Positions 36,927 through 64,000 of a stretch of 64,000 nucleotides of DNA are shown one piece after another. Position 1 is the first letter of the stretch. Every line of letters starts with the position of its first letter. Made by a program: the position numbers and the translations under genes. The notes beneath the pieces were generated by a model that saw only the letters and a program-made list of their open reading frames with translations, was not told where the DNA came from and ran no database searches. The stretch is from NCBI GenBank assembly GCA_036172245.1, contig JAYWIR010000005.1:2542001-2606000 (forward strand). The letters run 5' to 3'. This stretch comes from Raillietiella orientalis (taxonomy: Eukaryota).

Positions 36927-38137
36927 ACGACAACGCTGCATTCTTTAATTTGCTCGCTTGTCTGCTGTTTTTTCTGGCGGTACGCGAGCTTTTTCTCCAT
37001 CCTCCTCTCCTTCTTTGATTCTTTGGCCGTAGCCACCTGCCACCCAGGCTCCTGGCTAGTTCCCTCGACTTTTTCGGCGTTGTTCGCCGGGGTCTCGGGT
37101 GAGGCCTGGGCCTTGGGCGCGGGTGGCACAGACTTCGCGGCAGCTTTCGCCGCCAGCCTTTTCTGCAGAAGCCGGGCTCGTTTTTTAAGGTTTCTCTTGG
37201 AAACCACCCGCACTGCTGCTTTAGGGCACACCTCCCTCGTGTGTCCCATGGTTCCGCATACTTGGCTCTGCACATTGGGACACCTCTTTTTGAGGTAGCC
37301 CGACATATTGCAGAAGCCGCAGTATTTCGGCTTCCCCACATACCACAGGTCGACTGTTTCGCCTTCGACAACCAGTTTGTGGGGAAGAGGGCAGCCCTCC
37401 CGAACGGTCACGCGCGCAGCCGTGAGGCCGTGTTGCAGCCCCGTGTAGTCCTCGAAAGGACTAACTTTCGTCCACTGCGCGTGGACCGTTCCAAATTGTT
37501 CTAGAGCGGCGCGAACCTGTTCTTTGCGCATTCGCGCGGTTACGCCTAATAGGTGGACCACCATGCTGCGGTCCGCCTTAGTGGGGAGGAGCCTGCGCGT
37601 TCCCATCACAACGGGGGTTTTAAGCAGTCGTTGGGCCAGCTCTGCTTGTTTGCAGATGACCTCAACGTACTGACCCCCGCTGCGGATGGTCATAGCGCTG
37701 AGCTCCTCCTCTTTCACATCGAGAGCGCGCATGCCCTTCGAAAAGGAGTGCGCGCTCTCTAAAGAATAAAGGGGTACAACCCCTCATTGCCTACCTTGTA
37801 GAACAATGAGGGGTTGTACCCCTCCTCTACATAGGCCGACAATTCCGCCGCGGCTGCAGGCGATGGCGCCGACACAACGGCGCTCCACGCCCGCGCTGCA
37901 GCGGGGACCGATTCTGTGGGGGCGGATGCCCCCACCTCCATCGCCTCTTAGGGCGACGTTGCCGCCACCCCCTGGCTCTCCATCGCCTCTGGGGGCGGCG
38001 TTTCCGCTGCCCCCTGGCCATCCGTGGTGGTCGCGTTAGGCATCGCTGTTTGATCGACCACCGAACCACAGGACGCTTGCACTGGGGGAGACTTCCTGGC
38101 ACAAGGAGCACCGAGAAAACACGTCCGCCCTAGAGCG
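36927..38137 (-). mobile_element. F1 LINE 5' end and ORF1 N-half
   Basis: Reverse complement of 21428-22625; starts cgctctagggcggacgtg. Confidence 0.9.
37770..37823. repeat. Perfect 20-bp inverted repeat with 14-nt spacer
   Basis: aggggtacaacccctcattg (37770-37789) and caatgaggggttgtacccct (37804-37823). Confidence 0.9.
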
Positions 38138-43300: not shown

Positions 43301-46300
43301 CTTTGGAGAAGGCGTCGCCAATAGCAGGACTTGCCTGCAGGCGCGCACCTTTTCCAGACGCGCTGATGTCAGCCGGCTTGCGGATTACAAGGCGAGAGCC
43401 GACCGTCAGGTCTGGCAGTCTGGACTATCTTGCTTAATCGACGAAAGAGGCCTGGAGTGCTTGACGCCAGCCGATATTCGCCGCATTGTAAAAAGTTATT
43501 ACTCCTCGCTATACGCGGAAGCACCTACGGAAAGTCTCTTTTCGGAAATACTACTTTCCCAGGATGCTCCCGTTGTTAGCGAAGAGAAACGCTCACATCT
43601 CCACGAGTCCTTCACGGCGGAGGAAACTTCCTCCACCATCGCAAAGCTCAAGAGACGAAAAGCGCCAGGCGAGGATGGGCTGCCCGCGGAGTTTTATCAG
43701 TGCTTCGCGGAGGAGCACGTCCCCCTGGTGCTTCGCCTCTCGTCGCTGATGAGGGTTTCGGGGATGTCCCCAATTCCTACCGCTCAGCGAGGGTGCGTCT
43801 CCTGCCGAAAGGTGGAGACGCACGCCATCTGAACAGCTGGCGCCCGCTCACCTTGGTGAACTCGGACGTCAAGTTGTTCACCAAGCTGTGGGTTGCACGG
43901 CTAGGGAGAATCGCGCAGTCCTTGGTAAGCGCGGAGCAGACTTACGCTGTTTTCGGGCGGTCCATGGACGTGGACCTCCTGTTGACCCGCACCTGGATGC
44001 AGCTGCAGGAAGGCGTAGCGCAGCAAAGTCGATCCGTGAAAAATGCCGCTGCCAAAGGCTCACGGTATCGAAAGAAGCGGCAGGAGGGTACGCCGAGTGC
44101 ATTGGCGGTCGCAGTCGACCTCCACAAGGCGTTCGATTGCGTGAACCAAGGACTCCTATTGGAGCTTTTGGAAAGCCTGGGTCTCCCGGCGCAACTCCTG
44201 AAGTATTTGCGCGCATGCTGGCGCCACGCGCTAACCTGCATTTCTTTTAGCGGCTGCCACGTGTACGGTATTCCCATACGCAGGGGCATCAGGCAGGGTG
44301 ATACTTTAAGCCCGTTGCTCTTCAGCATCTTCTTTGAGTTGGTGCTGAGGGCGTACAGGCTGACTCTGGAGTACCTGCCTAGCTCTTTCCCGCAAACTCC
44401 TGCCGTGGCTGCCTCTGCAGATGACCCACTTCTTCTACTCCCAAAGTCCACCGCAGCGTCCAGTGTCGAAGATTTCTTTGACCTGATTCGTCGGGGAGCA
44501 GGCGTGAGGGTGAACAGAAAAAAGAGCGTAGTCGTTCCTGTAGGAGCGTCGTAGGAGGGGCAGTCCGACTGGATCCGCCTAAGAATCCCCACGGCAGGGT
44601 ACTTCAAGTACCTAGGCGTTCCGTTGGGCGAACTCGGCGCTGCCGAGGCGTGGTCGGACTGCCTTCATAAGGCTGAGCTGGCCACCAGCCCGTTCATTAA
44701 CGGTAAGTTTACCTTGCCGAAACGAGCGGCTAGTTGGACGACCTCCGTGGCCCCCCTCCTCCGACCCCTGGTTTTTGCCTTGGACGCGCTCAATGAGCGG
44801 GCAAGACGTGTGCTAAGGAACGCTCTCTGGGTTCCGGCGCGATCCAGGATCCGTCTGAAAGACCTCACTGCTCCACGTCGGGATGCTGGGCTTGGCATTC
44901 TTACGATGGAGAGAATCGGACTGCAAGTGCAGTTCCGGATGCTCGCACTGTGTGCCGAGCTATGGACTTCTACCCTGTGTGCGCCTGCGCGCATCCTTCT
45001 AAGGAGGTGTACAGGCAGTGAAGGACTTTTTTCGTTGGTGCCTGGCTTGCGCCACAGGAAATAGGGATTTGGCTATCCCTTGAGGAAAATCGCCACCCTA
45101 TTGGAAGCCAATACGATGATTTCCTGCCTCCCAATGAACTTCAATGCTTGGCAGCAGGAATCTTTTGATTCTTGGGATGCATTCCTAGATATGAGCCGCA
45201 AAGATCTTCGGCCCATGCGTCAATTTTAACCTTGACCACTCCAAGATGTGATGCAAGACGTGGTGAAGTTTGCCTTTCTGACTGCCACGCCCCTCGCCGA
45301 AGCACCCTCTTCCCTCGAGGCTAGAGAAGACAGTAGCCAACCGGCGATGTGAGAGTTCTCTTGCATCATCGCAGGAAGAACGAAACTCCTCGGCGAATGG
45401 GACACGAGCGAGCTGGCGAATGCCGCCACTCCTCGTGCTACATCAAAGTGACAACTTCGGTGGGGAGGAGCTCTTCGGGTTGCCCCCGAGGAACTGATAG
45501 TCCCTCCCGCTGTTTGGACGGTTCGGTGTTTCCCCTTGCATGGAAGCTAGACGTTCTGCTTTTTTTGCACTGGGGTTTCCGCTACAACGAGCGGCGCCAC
45601 GGAGTTTCCGGTGGGATGGCTTCTCCATACTGTGCCCGGTGCGGGGCTACGGAGTCGTTCCCGCACCTTGTTATGGACTGCGGCACCCTCCAGGAACTCT
45701 GGCGAAGGTTAGCAGCAGCTCTCCTGCCACTGGGGGACGCAGCCCGAGAAGTGCTGCGACGTTTCTTCTAACCGCGAGGACTTTCGAGGGCTGCGATGAT
45801 TTCCACAGTTTGTTGCATCCACGCCATGGTCACGGTCCGAGACGTGCTGGAGAACACGGATCAGCAATGTTGTGTCACCAGAAAGGCAGCCGACTTAATC
45901 AGGGTGGCAGCTGCGTGGCGAAAATTGAGTGAAGACGCTACGGAGGAGCTAACTGGCATCCATCGCCGGATGCGAAACAATTCCGAACGACGTACCCTGT
46001 GATCCTGTCGAATTTCCTTCAAACTATCTTTTTGTTGTCTTGTTCCTCCTCCCAGTCGTTCCCTGGTGCTTTGGTGCTTGAACTCTGTTTTTCCCGGTGA
46101 CTGCGGAGCGTCACCAAAGTTCCCTGTCCCATTCCTCCCATTCAGACTTTTCTTTTTTGTTTGTAGTCCCCTCTCCCCCCATTTGCTTAGGTCCTTCCGT
46201 TTTCCTGGCCTGCGTGTCAGTTGTGAATCTCCGTTGTTTTTGTAGTCGTTGGCTGGAAACTACTGTTTCCAGCTAGTTTATATTAATAAACGTCCCGGCG

Positions 46301-57580: not shown

Positions 57581-60069
57581 GACGGTTCCGGTTATTAGCA
57601 AAGAGGAACGCGCACGTCTCGACGACTACTTCACGGCGGAGAAAACTTCGTCCGCCATCGCGTAGCAAAAGAGAAGAAAAGCACCAGGAGAGGATGAGCT
57701 GCCCTCGGACTTTAATCAGTGCTTCGCGGCGAAGCTCGTCCCCCTGGTGCTTATCCTCTAGTCGCTGATGAGGGTTTCCAGGGGTGTGCTTAATTCCTTC
57801 CGCTCAGCCAGGGTGCGTCTCCTGCCGAAAGGTGGAGACGCACGCCATCTGAACAGCTGGCGCCCGCTCACCTTGGTGAACTCGGACGTCAAGTTGTTCT
57901 CCAAGATGTGGGTTGCACGGCTAGGGAGAATCGCGCAGTCCTTGGTAAGCGCGGAGCAAACTTACGCTGTTTTCGGGCGGTCCATGGACGTGGACCTCCT
58001 GTTGACCCGCACCTGGATGCAGCTGCATGAAAGCATAGCGCAGCAAAGCCGATCCGTGTCAAAGGCCCCTGCCAAAGGCACACGGTATCGGCAGAAGCGG
58101 CAGGAGGGAACGCCGGGTGCCTTGGCGGTCGCAGTCGACCTCCACAAGGCGTTCGATTGCGTGAACCAAGGACTCCTATTGGAGCTCTTGGAACGCCTGG
58201 GTCTCCCGGCGCAACTCCTGAAGTATTTGCGCGCATGCTGGCGCCACGCGCTAACCTGCATTTCTTTTAGCGGCTGCCACGTGTACGGTATTCCCATACG
58301 CAGGGGCATCAGGTAGGGTGATACTTTAAGCCCGTTGCTCTTCAGCATCTTCTTTGAGTTGGTGCTGAGGGCGTACAGGCTGACTCTGGAGTACCTGCCT
58401 AGCTCTTTCCCGGAAACGCCTGCCGTGGCTGCCTCTGCAGATGACCCACTTCTTCTACTCCCAAAGTCCACCGCAGCGTCCAGTGTCGAAGATTTCTTTG
58501 ACCTGATTCGTCGGGGAGCAGGCGTGAGGGTGAACAGAAAAAAGAGCGTAGTCGTTCCTGTAGGAGCGTCGTAGGAGGGGCAGTCCGACTGGATCCGCCT
58601 AAGAATCCCCACGGCAGGGTACTTCAAGTACCTAGGCGTTCCGTTGGGCGAACTCGGCGCTGCCGAGGCGTGGTCGGACTGCCTTCATAAGGCTGAGCTG
58701 GCCACCAGCCCGTTCATTAACGGTAAGTTTACCTTGCCGAAACGAGCGGCTAGTTGGACGACCTCCGTGGCCCCCCTCCTCCGACCCCTGGTTTTTGCCT
58801 TGGACGCGCTCAATGAGCGGGCAAGACGTGTGCTAAGGAACGCTCTCTGGGTTCCGGCGCGATCCAGGATCCGTCTGAAAGACCTCACTGCTCCACGTCG
58901 GGATGCTGGGCTTGGCATTCTTACGATGGAGAGAATCGGACTGCAAGTGCAGTTCCGGATGCTCGCACTGTGTGCCGAGCTATGGACTTCTACCCTGTGT
59001 GCGCCTGCGCGCATCCTTCTAAGGAGGTGTACAGGCAGTGAAGGACTTTTTTCGTTGGTGCCTGGCTTGCGCCACAGGAAATAGGGATTTGGCTATCCCT
59101 TGAGGAAAATCGCCACCCTATTGGAAGCCAATACGATGATTTCCTGCCTCCCAATGAACTTCAATGCTTGGCAGCAGGAATCTTTTGATTCTTGGGATGC
59201 ATTCCTAGATATGAGCCGCAAAGATCTTCGGCCCATGCGTCAATTTTAACCTTGACCACTCCAAGATGTGATGCAAGACGTGGTGAAGTTTGCCTTTCTG
59301 ACTGCCACGCCCCTCGCCGAAGCACCCTCTTCCCTCGAGGCTAGAGAAGACAGTAGCCAACCGGCGATGTGAGAGTTCTCTTGCATCATCGCAGGAAGAA
59401 CGAAACTCCTCGGCGAATGGGACACGAGCGAGCTGGCGAATGCCGCCACTCCTCGTGCTACATCAAAGTGACAACTTCGGTGGGGAGGAGCTCTTCGGGT
59501 TGCCCCCGAGGAACTGATAGTCCCTCCCGCTGTTTGGACGGTTCGGTGTTTCCCCTTGCATGGAAGCTAGACGTTCTGCTTTTTTTGCACTGGGGTTTCC
59601 GCTACAACGAGCGGCGCCACGGAGTTTCCGGTGGGATGGCTTCTCCATACTGTGCCCGGTGCGGGGCTACGGAGTCGTTCCCGCACCTTGTTATGGACTG
59701 CGGCACCCTCCAGGAACTCTGGCGAAGGTTAGCAGCAGCTCTCCTGCCACTGGGGGACGCAGCCCGAGAAGTGCTGCGACGTTTCTTCTAACCGCGAGGA
59801 CTTTCGAGGGCTGCGATGATTTCCACAGTTTGTTGCATCCACGCCATGGTCACGGTCCGAGACGTGCTGGAGAACACGGACCAGCAATGTTGTGTCACCA
59901 GAAGGCAGCCGACTTAATCAGGGTGGCAGCTGCGTGGCGACAATTGAGGGAAGACGCAACGGAGGAGCACACCGGCATCCATTGCCGGATTACCCTCGGT
60001 TTAGAACGATGGACCCGGTGATCCATGTCCATTCCCTTTTAACTCCATTTTTGTTGTCGCGCCCCTCTT

Positions 60070-61011
60070 TTTTTTTTTTGGTTCACTAAGTGCGCCTCAA
60101 GAGCCGGTCGCGTACCTTGCGGCACACATAGCTCTTTTAAACACTGTTTTGTTTCCACGCCTCTCCGCTGCAACAACCCCGCAGGTGCGCGTGTAATTCT
60201 TCAGTGTAATTCTTCAGGATAATGGACACCCCGGGATGGGGTCCTCCCTATGAATCCAGGAAAGGCTCGGAGTCCGTTCCTCTCACGCTTGGGGTGGGGA
60301 GGGATCCTCCCGGAAGGGGGGGATCGCAGCTCCTACCCTGGTTGTCTCCGAAGGGGAACCGCGAAGGGAATCTCCTTCCTCGTTCTCTCCGGAGGGACAC
60401 CCCCCGTTATGGGGGATGGTCCTATCCATTTCAACTTCTCCGGAGGGAACCCGGAGAAGGAATTTCTTCTCCGGAGGGAACCCGCAAGGGAATCGCTCCT
60501 GTTCACTCCTCTGAAGAGAACCCCGAAGGGACGCTTCCGAAATTCAGAAGGAGCGCTGCAGCTTCCCACAGGGGGATCGCTCTCGCTTGCTTCCTTGTGC
60601 ACTCTGTGAAGAGGCGACGACTCGGAGGGTCCCCCTGCAACCGGGGCGGATCCGCCCCTGGAGACAACTGGAGAGGTGCCCGTGAGGGCTCCTGCTCCAT
60701 CTTGAAACCGGAGGGACCCCTTCGGTGGGAGGGGTCCGCTCTCCGTTGTACGACCGGAGGGGGAACTCTCTGCTCCTTTATTCCTGGGAAGACCCGAAGG
60801 TCAATTTCCCATTGTTCTGTCCTTCATCAAGGGTCTCCGGCTTAATCCACCGCCGGTGCCACGCCCGAATGATTAGGCCAACCAGCGCCACTGCAGGAGA
60901 AACTCGGCACCCGACGACGCAGTGGCTTCAGTGTTTCTGCCGAAATATTCGAACCCGCGACGCATGGTGGCACACGCGCAAGCCTTAACCACAAGGCCTC
61001 CGACGCGGGCA
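60070..61011 (-). mobile_element. tRNA-derived SINE-like retroposon (~940 bp) with poly(A) tail and 11-bp TSD
   Basis: TSD gcgcccctctt at 60059-60069 and 61012-61022; T run 60068-60079; minus-strand head with A-box-like aggccttgtggttaagg and B-box ggttcgaat. Absent from the 3' UTR of F3 copy 1 (~46040). Confidence 0.85.
60940..61011 (-). promoter_or_regulatory. tRNA-like head with internal Pol III promoter (A and B boxes)
   Basis: D-arm-like gcctt-gtggtt-aaggc (60982-60997) and T-loop GGTTCGAAT (60947-60955) at tRNA-like spacing; acceptor and T stems degenerate. Confidence 0.7.
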
Positions 61012-61296
61012 GCGCCCCTCTTCCCATTCGCTCCGTAGTGCTTTTGGTGCTTCTGCTCTCTGTCTTTTCCGGGGACTGCGGAGCGTCACCAAAGATCCCT
61101 GACCCTTTCCTCCCATTAAGACTGTTCTTTTTTATTTGTAGCCCCCTCTTCCCCCAATCGCTCGAGACCTTCCGTTTTCCTGGCCTGAGTGCCACTGGTG
61201 TATCTTCGTTGATAGTTTTCTATAGTCGTCGGCTGGAAACAACTGTTTCCAGCTGGTTTATGTGAATAAAAGTCCCGGCGTGACCGGGTAAGAAAA

Positions 61297-64000
61297 ATTT
61301 TAACGATCGCTTGCAACCAGATGGGCGGGATCATGAACGCGCCCTGGTCAAGGAGAGGTGCGCGTGGGTGCACGCATGTAACTTGCTGGCCACTGAACCG
61401 GGAATGGGGGACCCCATCGATCACGAGTTCCTTGACCAGCACTTGTGCCCTTGCGTGAGCAGGCGCGGCAAGTTACTGTCCGAGCTGTCCGAGCATTGCT
61501 CGATCGTGCTCGAGATTCATCTGCGCGACAGGGGCCCTTCCTCGTCAGCGTGTCGTCTCCCAGAGGACTGCCTGAAGCTCCCGGACGCTGCGGAACATCG
61601 CACGTTTATACGGAGCTTAAGGGTGCGGACACATTATGATTAGGATTGCTTCAAGAGGTCAGTCCAGAAGTTCTGCGACCAGTTGTCTATGTACCGCCTA
61701 CCTACAGGATTTGAGGACGAGGTTTGTAACGACAGGTGCTACCTCCAGGAGCGGCGTTAATTCAGGATCCATGATATCCGCAGGCTAGAAGAATACAGAG
61801 CGGAAGCCGAGAGGCAAGCCTGGCAGTCAGAATCGGCTACCTTGCTAGACTATCAGGACCGGGAGCACTGGGCTCTCACTCAGATTCGCGGACTTCTGCG
61901 TGGTTTTTATTGTTCCTTCTACGCGAAAACGCCTCCCGAGCGGGATGTCTCACGACTCTTGCTTCAGGAAGGCGCTAAAGCGATCGGGGAGGAGGAGAAA
62001 AAGTCCCTCGACGAGCCTTTCACGATGGGCGAGATCATCTCGGCCATCGGAAAGCTCAAGAGGCGCAAGGCTCCAGGGGAGGACGGCCTGCCCGCGGAGT
62101 TTTATCAAACTTTCGCGGCCGAGCTATCCCCCCTGGTACATCAACTCACCTTGCTGATACGCGAGACAGGTGACGTTCCCGCCTCGTTTCGTTCGGCAAA
62201 GGTGCGGCTTCTCCCTAAGGGAGGAGATCTGAGGAGCATGAACAACTGGCGTCCCATCACAATAGTGAATGCGGGGGTCAATTTGATACCAAAGATGTAG
62301 TCAGAGCGTCTGAGAAGGGTTGCAAACCCCTTCATCAGCCCGGAACAGACATATGCTGTTCCCGGGCGAAGCATGGAGGCAAACCTGTTCCACGCTTCCA
62401 CCTGGCTAGAGCTCCAACAAGAAAGGGGCTTGATGCGCAGCCGGAATTCCTGTGCGTCCGTAGGCAATGGGTCGGATGGTTGGGTGGGGGAGGGAGCCCT
62501 TGCGGTCGCAGTCGACTTGCACAAAGCATTCCACTGCGTCGACCAGAAACTCCTGTTGGAGCTTCTGGAATGCTTGGGCTTCTTGGCCTCATTGTTAGCC
62601 TATCTGCGCTCCAGCTGGCGCGACGCGTTGATCATTCTTTCTTTCAGCGGGCAGACCGTGCACGGCGTGGCGGAGCGGCGTGGGATACGGCAAGGAGACA
62701 GCCTGAGCCCCTTGCTCTTCAGTACCTACTTTGAGTTGCTACTGAGAGCGTACAGGGGAACTCTGGCGCACCTGCCGCACGACTGTCCCGGTACGCCCGC
62801 GGTTTCAGCGTACTCGAATGACCTTCTGCTGCTGCTCCCTATGTCCACCCCGGCTGCGGCGGTCGAGGAGTTCTTCGACCTGCTGCATCGGGGAACCGGA
62901 CTTACGGTGAACAGGGCGAAGTCGTCCGTGATGTAAGTTGGTGCGGCGTGGGCAGGGCAGTAGGACTGGGCGTGCTTGGAGATCCCCACGGTGAGGTACT
63001 TCAAGTACTTCGATGTTCCGTTAAGGTACTATCCTTCTACGGAAGGGTGGTCCCGCTGCCTCCAGAAACTAGTGATGGCGATCGGCCCGTTCCAATTCGG
63101 CAGGTTCTTTCTGCAGATGTGGGCCGCGGTTTGGAACACATTTGCTGCTCCTCTCCTCCGTACCCTGCTTTTTGTTTGCTTCTCCACAGAGAGGATCAAA
63201 AGGCGGACGAAGGACCTCCTCCGTACCGCCATTTGGGACAACGGGAGGACCCGAGTCCGCTTGAAGGACTTGTTCTCTCCGCGTCGGGAGGGCGGTCTCG
63301 ACCTACTGACGCTGGAGCGGCTGGAGCTTCAGCTCCGGTTCCGGATGTTGGCCGTTGTGCCGGAGTTGTGGGGCAGCTTCTGGTGCGTCCTCGCACGTCT
63401 CCTCGTCAAGGAAGCCGCCGTCAAGGAAGATGGGGCTCACGTCCTTTCTTGCACTCCATCGCAGCCGCATCAACCAATATAGACTCCAGCTGCGGAGGGT
63501 GGCTGACTGGAGTAGAAAAAATTTAGGATGGATCTCCTGTCGCCCCGCGAACGGTAGTGTCCGGTTGCAGAAAACCGTTCGACATGGGCACAGAGCGGCA
63601 TGCAACGTGTCGAACAGGAACGACGGTTCCTGTTCGGACGCTACAGAAGTTGCACGCTTTGAGAGATCCTGGAGGATCCGAATAAGGGAGAGTGGTCAGA
63701 AAGAACCCTCCTCTCTGCTGCGCTGGTCTTCCTCATAAAAGATGTGGACAGCGATTTGCGGCGAAGTCAGTGGTTAAAGTCGAAATTCCCGGAATGGAGA
63801 GGAAGATAGGAGAGTAGAACATCTAGCAGACGCTGCGACTCCGAGTACGCCTCCCCATGGACTTCTGCGCTGAAGCGCGCTGCTCGATGTTCCAGTTGAA
63901 CTTCTGAAGTGTCTCCCAGTGCTAATGAATACCTTCACTCTCCTCTAAAAATGGCAGGAGTCGGCTCTTCTGTTGCAGCACTGGTGACTCCCGTGCAACT
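61297..64000 (+). mobile_element. F1-like LINE ORF2 (EN end, RT, post-RT region), runs off the window
   Basis: KAPGEDG, NWRPIT, DLHKAF, QGDSLSP and degenerate YSND; colinear with 23660-26360. Confidence 0.9.

Follow-up and report, generated by a model that had tools for sequence, protein, structure and literature searches.

At 60070–61011 of the window, the whole 64-kb stretch of DNA that we analyzed, lies a real SINE: a shortened copy of a gene-less element of unusual length. The copy lies on the minus strand, antisense within the 3' untranslated end of a host LINE, and is flanked by an 11-bp target site duplication (TSD) (Table 1). A paralogous copy of the LINE is uninterrupted across this site and has a single equivalent of the TSD. 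Thus, the window SINE is a true insertion. The initial annotation had reported the TSD together with A and B boxes and a poly(A) tail. We confirmed the TSD and found box-like motifs at tRNA spacing. However, the supposed poly(A) is the internal A-tract of the family: the full element runs on for about 135 nt, and the window copy lacks the remaining linker, the target of a LINE that we call family 1, the terminal hairpin, the T-run, and the poly(A). It had also been noted that the tail lacks the terminal hairpin of the neighboring LINEs. That hairpin is absent from full-length copies as well, but the observation was made on a truncated copy, and the family has a terminal hairpin of its own. We think it likely that the family is a lineage-specific tRNA-derived SINE of unusual length that moves by the mechanism proposed below and is itself targeted by LINEs.

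Table 1. Features of the window copy and of its insertion site (window positions)
Feature	Position	Strand	Remark
TSD, head side	61012..61022		11 bp
TSD, tail side	60059..60069		11 bp; final two bases merge with the A-tract
tRNA-derived head	60937..61011	-	Family 5' end is 61010, plus one additional base
A-box-like motif	60999-60989	-	At tRNA spacing to the B-box-like motif
B-box-like motif	60955-60945	-	At tRNA spacing to the A-box-like motif
5' body, origin unassigned	60811..60936	-	
Homologue of LINE family 2 antisense target site	60860-60853		Uninterrupted in the window copy
Hairpin-unit array	60140..60810	-	About a dozen degenerate 35-50 nt units of the GGAG-C-GG..CCC-loop-GGG..CCCTCC type
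Final body hairpin and beginning of A-rich linker	60080..60139	-	
Internal A-tract, 3' end of window copy	60070..60079	-	
Host L1/Tx1-like LINE fragment	57587..61301	+	
Host LINE 3' close	AATAAA (61265), CCCGG..CCGGG hairpin (61275-61289)	+	
Empty site in paralogous LINE copy	46040..46050	+	Paralogous copy is 43568-46333

Copies, subfamilies, and anatomy of the family

The family has at least 1,545 copies in the 210-Mb genome of a pancrustacean arthropod, as judged from a ryanodine receptor exon that adjoins another copy. The count is that of exact genome-wide matches to a body 14-mer common to all subfamilies, compared with 0 for the control. A head 14-mer had 135 matches (2 for the control), and a tail 14-mer had 114 (1 for the control). 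When we searched the genome with the window element, 40 of 3,452 candidates were scored, and all were long matches of at least 82%. All of 30 tail-anchored loci were family members, 8 of them 5'-truncated. The consensus of the young subfamily, from 36 copies, is 1,076 nt. Two older subfamilies, B (from 29 copies) and C (from 17, and noisy), have a length of about 835 nt. Young copies diverge from their consensus by 4.7% on average and the window copy by 8.4%; the nearest relative of the window copy is 42 kb away. The subfamilies carry their own indels and form several parallel clusters. The members of one five-copy cluster, which share a deletion and differ in their flanks, are only 0 to 1% apart. 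Thus, the SINE family moved recently.

Two open frames across the body had no Pfam match, and indels are frequent among the copies; on these two grounds, the element is noncoding and nonautonomous. A search of Rfam returned nothing credible for the window at the gathering score or for a full copy even at an E of 10. The tail motif had 0 matches in viral contigs and one match of 22 nt, without further similarity, in metagenome contigs. The tRNA head, the dispersed copies with TSDs, the subfamily indels, and the lack of an Rfam match support the "new SINE family" of the initial annotation, where "new" is meant relative to Rfam. The other option given there, that a structured Pol III RNA was retrocopied, is a weaker rival.

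A complete element begins with a tRNA head and a 5' body, followed by about a dozen hairpin units and an A-rich linker; a conserved stretch then precedes the terminal hairpin, the T-run, and poly(A). We compared the heads with the 61 tRNAs of the genome. The oldest-subfamily head scored 52 with tRNA-Arg(CCT), compared with 40 for the runner-up and a maximum of 36 among 200 shuffles; the oldest consensus aligns over the entire tRNA and keeps a canonical B box. No single tRNA matched the young head, whose best score of 39 was equaled by 2 of 200 shuffles. This head departs from both box consensuses, the boxes being degenerate with the tRNA spacing kept, and ARAGORN called no tRNA within the 64-kb window. 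The hairpin units, of which the dozen was counted by eye, were gained and lost between subfamilies. Self-alignment of the body reached an E of 1e-5, and a strict unit pattern found 4 units, compared with 0.013 in shuffles. The recurring motif tctcc(g/a)(g/a)aggg that had been reported is present: the element holds 4 of the 5 matches on both strands of the window. Short inverted head copies lie directly 5' of the element at five loci (L159, L148, L170, L197, and L005), and the reverse strand of the SINE tail has a short resemblance to the D-arm of tRNA-His.

The sense strand of the SINE has no T4 run ahead of its end. The T-run itself is 1 to 9 bases long, and the next base is A in 41 of 46 full tails. 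Two full copies (L227 and L240) finish in T5-T6 without an A-tail or a called TSD, and these are candidate source loci. Among 80 head-anchored loci, a sample of the listed heads minus those already retrieved by similarity (100 listed, 135 counted) in which full-length copies are undercounted, the full tail was reached by 9, 28 ended within the A-rich linker, 4 ended at 1012–1059, and 39 ended earlier or were unaligned. We also observed internally cut copies with an added A-tail (L145, L166, L181, L189, L197, L199, and L201), which suggests A-tailed decay intermediates.

Mobilization and folding

We called a TSD in 73 of 160 copies, compared with 3 of 160 when flanks were swapped. The TSDs are mostly 11 to 14 bp, with A as the first base in 48 of the 73 and as the second in 49; many of the truncated copies have a TSD that overlaps their final aligned bases. 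Such TSDs are as expected if an L1/Tx1-like enzyme that is not strict about its RNA performs target-primed reverse transcription. L1/Tx1-like LINEs fill the window. They carry RVT_1, zf-RVT, and a CCHC ORF1, and the best PDB match of their proteins is human L1 ORF2p. They are putatively Tx1-like by their general features; protein searches returned no named member of the Tx1 clade. The initial annotation had the element mobilized by a different route from its neighbors. This does not follow, because the absence of the neighbors' terminal hairpin is by itself insufficient, and the length of the TSDs and the start of the target fit an L1/Tx1-like enzyme such as the neighbors encode.

We found no LINE that owns the SINE tail among 70 tail-anchored loci, a search that diverged partners could escape. 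At three tail loci with a LINE in front, junction duplications identify the LINEs as insertions. These duplications mark the tail behind the LINE ends as target DNA, and we therefore rejected a stringent SINE/LINE pair with a shared 3' tail. Template-switch chimeras of the U6-L1 type are mostly excluded by the same duplications; a possible exception is locus L255, which fits no simple TSD. Six of 132 young copies (L004, L049, L167, L209, L219, and L225) sit in members of one LINE family, each at the homologous purine-rich position, a hot spot for insertion of young SINE copies.

We propose the following mechanism. Master copies would be transcribed by Pol III from the A and B boxes, as predicted from the boxes, the lack of an internal T4, and the terminal T-run, and transcription would terminate in this T-run, which follows the terminal hairpin. 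The RNA would then be A-tailed, and an L1/Tx1-like reverse transcriptase would act on it in trans, priming either on the added A-tail or internally at A-rich or target-complementary stretches. Internal priming would produce many 3'-truncated, tailless copies, the window copy included. The body would have grown by tandem duplication of a single hairpin unit, a growth that was probably tolerated rather than selected. Owing to the abundance of the family, at least two L1/Tx1-like families, presumably site-specific, took fixed SINE nucleotides as landing sites.

We asked how unusual the folding of the window element is. Its whole-length z-score is -4.9 on the minus strand and -4.6 on the plus strand (20 shuffles each), and its local z-scores are -5.6/-9.3. 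Local folding of 15 neighboring plus-strand tiles of the same length gave z-scores from -0.5 to -9.6, 12 of them at or below -4.2. Thus, the scores are away from zero, which the initial annotation had proposed as a check, but they are unexceptional here because neighboring LINE DNA scores alike. On the minus strand, 120-nt tiles of the element had z-scores of +1.4 to -2.2, with a background mean of -1.4 (39 tiles). All four stems quoted earlier are in place. However, of 161 copies, only the window copy has the perfect palindrome, and the same holds for the cttctccgg stem; the gacc-uucg-ggtc stem is present in 92 of 161. Several loops had been read as UUCG-type, but only 1 of 19 minus-strand 4-nt loops with stems of at least 4 bp is C(UUCG)G, and the GNRA loops of the plus strand are the same hairpins read backwards and add no independent evidence.

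Stem pairs predicted from the young consensus are disrupted in fewer cases than expected: 12 versus 31 in subfamily B and 27 versus 41 in C. A deficit of this kind would also follow if the stems came from duplication and then decayed under neutrality, since changes on the young lineage drop out of the paired class. Compensatory pairs exceeded the null in one of six sense comparisons (8 versus 3.0; p 0.01), and changes that keep pairing made up 60 of 116 shared changes, compared with 101 of 534 private ones. Neutral decay of ancestral stems combined with a C-to-T bias gives the same pattern, and we therefore discounted the apparent signal of selection from the broken pairs and the shared changes. 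Tests in the reciprocal direction gave weak or null results. A spectrum-matched control for such selection was negative, and the tail hairpin had no net covariation across 13 diverged tails (covariation term, +0.21). We lean toward the hairpins being neutral rather than selected, and a functional role for them finds no firm support. A hammerhead or HDV-like ribozyme retroposon was rejected: a full copy had no Rfam match at an E of 10, and, by eye, a CUGAAGA/GAAA segment lacks fitting stems and the tail loop differs among subfamilies. Telomerase-template and 7SK readings were dismissed by eye.

LINEs at fixed nucleotides of the SINE

At 3 of 40 tail loci, a LINE end lies directly ahead of the SINE tail. 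The family of these ends, family 1, has 99 exact 13-mers genome-wide. We compared 43 family 1 ends, among which one locus is duplicated and a few ends belong to other families, with a control of 30 ends of the window's LINE type. A same-strand SINE lies at most 1.5 kb upstream in 25 of the 43, compared with 1 of the 30, and the target motif lies upstream in 19 of the 43, compared with none of the 30. The break within the SINE falls between GGATTTCC and ATCATCC, and 52 exact junctions of this kind are present genome-wide. Junction duplications of at least 10 nt (10 to 18 bases) were found in 10 of 21 pairs, compared with 40 of 420 mismatched pairs, and the 5' start points of the LINE pieces differ widely. 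Thus, the family 1 events are independent insertions into DNA, sometimes stacked.

A second LINE family uses another site. Five of the 30 control-set ends lie antisense at one base of the SINE 5' body, and this junction occurs exactly 115 times genome-wide, compared with 0 for its control. All five examined ends of that type are within the SINE. The targeted copies are mostly old. Junctions and TSDs in these older copies show that LINEs have landed at fixed SINE nucleotides, and presumably reflect the specificity of the LINE enzymes. No intact family 1 LINE was found in our search, the best other matches being 72 to 76%. The inserted, targeting families are classed as putatively L1/Tx1-like by comparison with the window LINEs (65 to 77% similar in DNA).

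Weighing the alternatives, we asked whether the copies could instead have arisen as processed pseudogenes from a single host Pol III RNA, abundant, structured, and about 1.1 kb long, with the subfamilies as past states of its gene. The dominance of 5'-intact, 3'-truncated copies in the head-anchored sample recalls the tailless retropseudogenes described in PMC5322556. The variable T-run followed by A, and the two copies that finish in T5-T6 without an A-tail or a called TSD, also point this way, as does the better folding of the sense strand in the young consensus (z -10.6, compared with -4.1 for the other strand). Variable T-runs and A-tails at internal breakpoints count to this extent against our preferred reading. 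However, subfamily B has no strand bias in folding (-5.6/-6.4), and G-to-A changes that break a pair are no less frequent in stems (28 of 135) than at unpaired positions (7 of 82). Several young clusters with different indels coexist, entire units have been gained and lost, and no Rfam family matches even at an E of 10. We regard the host RNA as unlikely. That the element is a nonautonomous derivative of a LINE or another element, its ends later capped by a piece of tRNA, we regard as highly improbable. SINE bodies are known to originate from LINE ends in some cases (PMC5786205), and the LINE 5' ends of this genome were covered in part. The element nevertheless has no match longer than 24 nt to the many LINEs of the window, the two open frames over its body are without a Pfam match, and the body is self-repeating.

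The targeting itself raises the question of reciprocal dependence, in which a family 1 LINE resident in the SINE would read through into the SINE tail, and its enzyme would use that register to copy SINE RNA as well, so that SINE and LINE would sustain one another. No stretch of the SINE family is better conserved than the family 1 target (27 of 28 bases common to the three consensuses, compared with a mean of 13.7 per 30), although choosing loci by the tail motif accounts for part of this conservation. At least once, a LINE and SINE tail moved without the SINE front (L220/L266). In subfamily B, 17 of 28 copies end within a few bases of the family 1 site, which may reflect RNA processing, priming by the family 1 LINE, or later breakage at the cut site. 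However, a TSD was called in 3 of these 17, compared with 6 of the 11 other B copies (p 0.09), so many of them may be later breaks at the site. Moreover, SINE copies do not land at target-like sites, and the young subfamily moved long after the family 1 LINE had decayed. We consider this dependence quite unlikely. We hold as doubtful the related idea of a loop in which a site-specific LINE would use the conserved SINE tail both as its target in DNA and as the register where its reverse transcriptase primes, with a second LINE family using another SINE site. If such a loop were real, the SINE would spread landing pads for the enzyme that spreads it. We retain a tRNA-derived SINE mobilized in trans as the likely explanation.

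Comparison with known systems and further observations

The family resembles the tRNA-derived SINEs of SINEBase in its head-body-tail layout, tRNA head, and TSDs. The length range given in PMC3531059 is 75 to 662 nt without the tail. At 1,076 nt, or about 835 nt in the older subfamilies, our family lies beyond this range, which is descriptive and not a mechanistic criterion. It also differs from the SINEs described there in having a separate terminal hairpin and T-run ahead of the A-tail. The same source presents CHRS as a quasi-oligomer of a degenerate motif of about 20 nt, with more than 10 repeats and variants that differ in repeat number. Our family shares the degenerate repeated motif of varying number, but its unit is 35 to 50 nt and is itself a hairpin. 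The family thus stretches the size range of SINEs with a body that appears to have arisen as copies of one hairpin module were duplicated and lost. In the literature covered, to which subscription papers and Repbase Reports mostly did not belong, we found no long or crustacean SINE.

The copies share with the tailless retropseudogenes of PMC5322556 the intact 5' and truncated 3' ends, preferred end points, TSDs that overlap the last bases, and internal priming on A-rich stretches. Those retropseudogenes belong to therian L1, whereas our family is from an arthropod with L1/Tx1-like LINEs, and some of its truncated copies have an added A-tail, a feature not observed in that study. ZmSINE2/3 and LINE1-1 form a stringent SINE/LINE pair that shares a 3' stem-loop (PMC3747384). 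Our SINE likewise has a conserved 3' hairpin, but no owning LINE was found, and what looks shared is target DNA that lies behind LINE insertions.

Target-specific members of the Tx1 clade insert at a fixed place in another repeat and reinsert in tandem, as the LINEs do here. PMC4494074 names Tx1L in Tx1D, Tx1-Mar in Mariner-N4_AMi, Tx1-9_AMi in Harbinger, and Keno in U2; the targets comprise DNA transposons, LTR elements, U2 genes, and microsatellites, and SINEU is a passenger among these target-specific systems. The flank rate of family 1 passes the 20% flank rule used there, and family 1 agrees with that source in its fixed nucleotide and TSDs as well. The difference is that a SINE is targeted here, with different families at two sites and in two orientations, and no SINE is among the Tx1 targets named in the main text of PMC4494074. 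We found no report of a LINE that targets a SINE in the literature covered, from which subscription papers and Repbase Reports were mostly absent. Site-specific L1/Tx1-like LINEs thus appear to have SINEs among their targets as well, here with a separate site for each of two families.

Several LINE families of the genome also seem to aim at each other. Other LINE families end at common positions within other LINEs (L334, L348, and L350; L326 and L327; L351 and L352), which suggests that target-specific families have radiated. With related endonucleases whose targets differ and can be read, the evolution of target choice becomes testable. A further LINE (L329:1515-2330) has inserted antisense near the family 1 site of an old SINE copy, within its tail, and possibly represents a third targeting family. 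The whole window (1-64000) is filled with nested L1/Tx1-like LINE fragments, whose ends carry AATAAA and a CCCGG..CCGGG hairpin and, at most, a little poly(A); one such end has 710 exact 15-mers genome-wide. At 37770-37823, a near-perfect 54-bp inverted repeat lies in the ORF1 region of a LINE. Elsewhere in the genome, a copy of the SINE (L021:1090-1311) is in an intron of a ryanodine receptor gene, whose adjoining exon has its best matches in crustaceans (81 to 85%).
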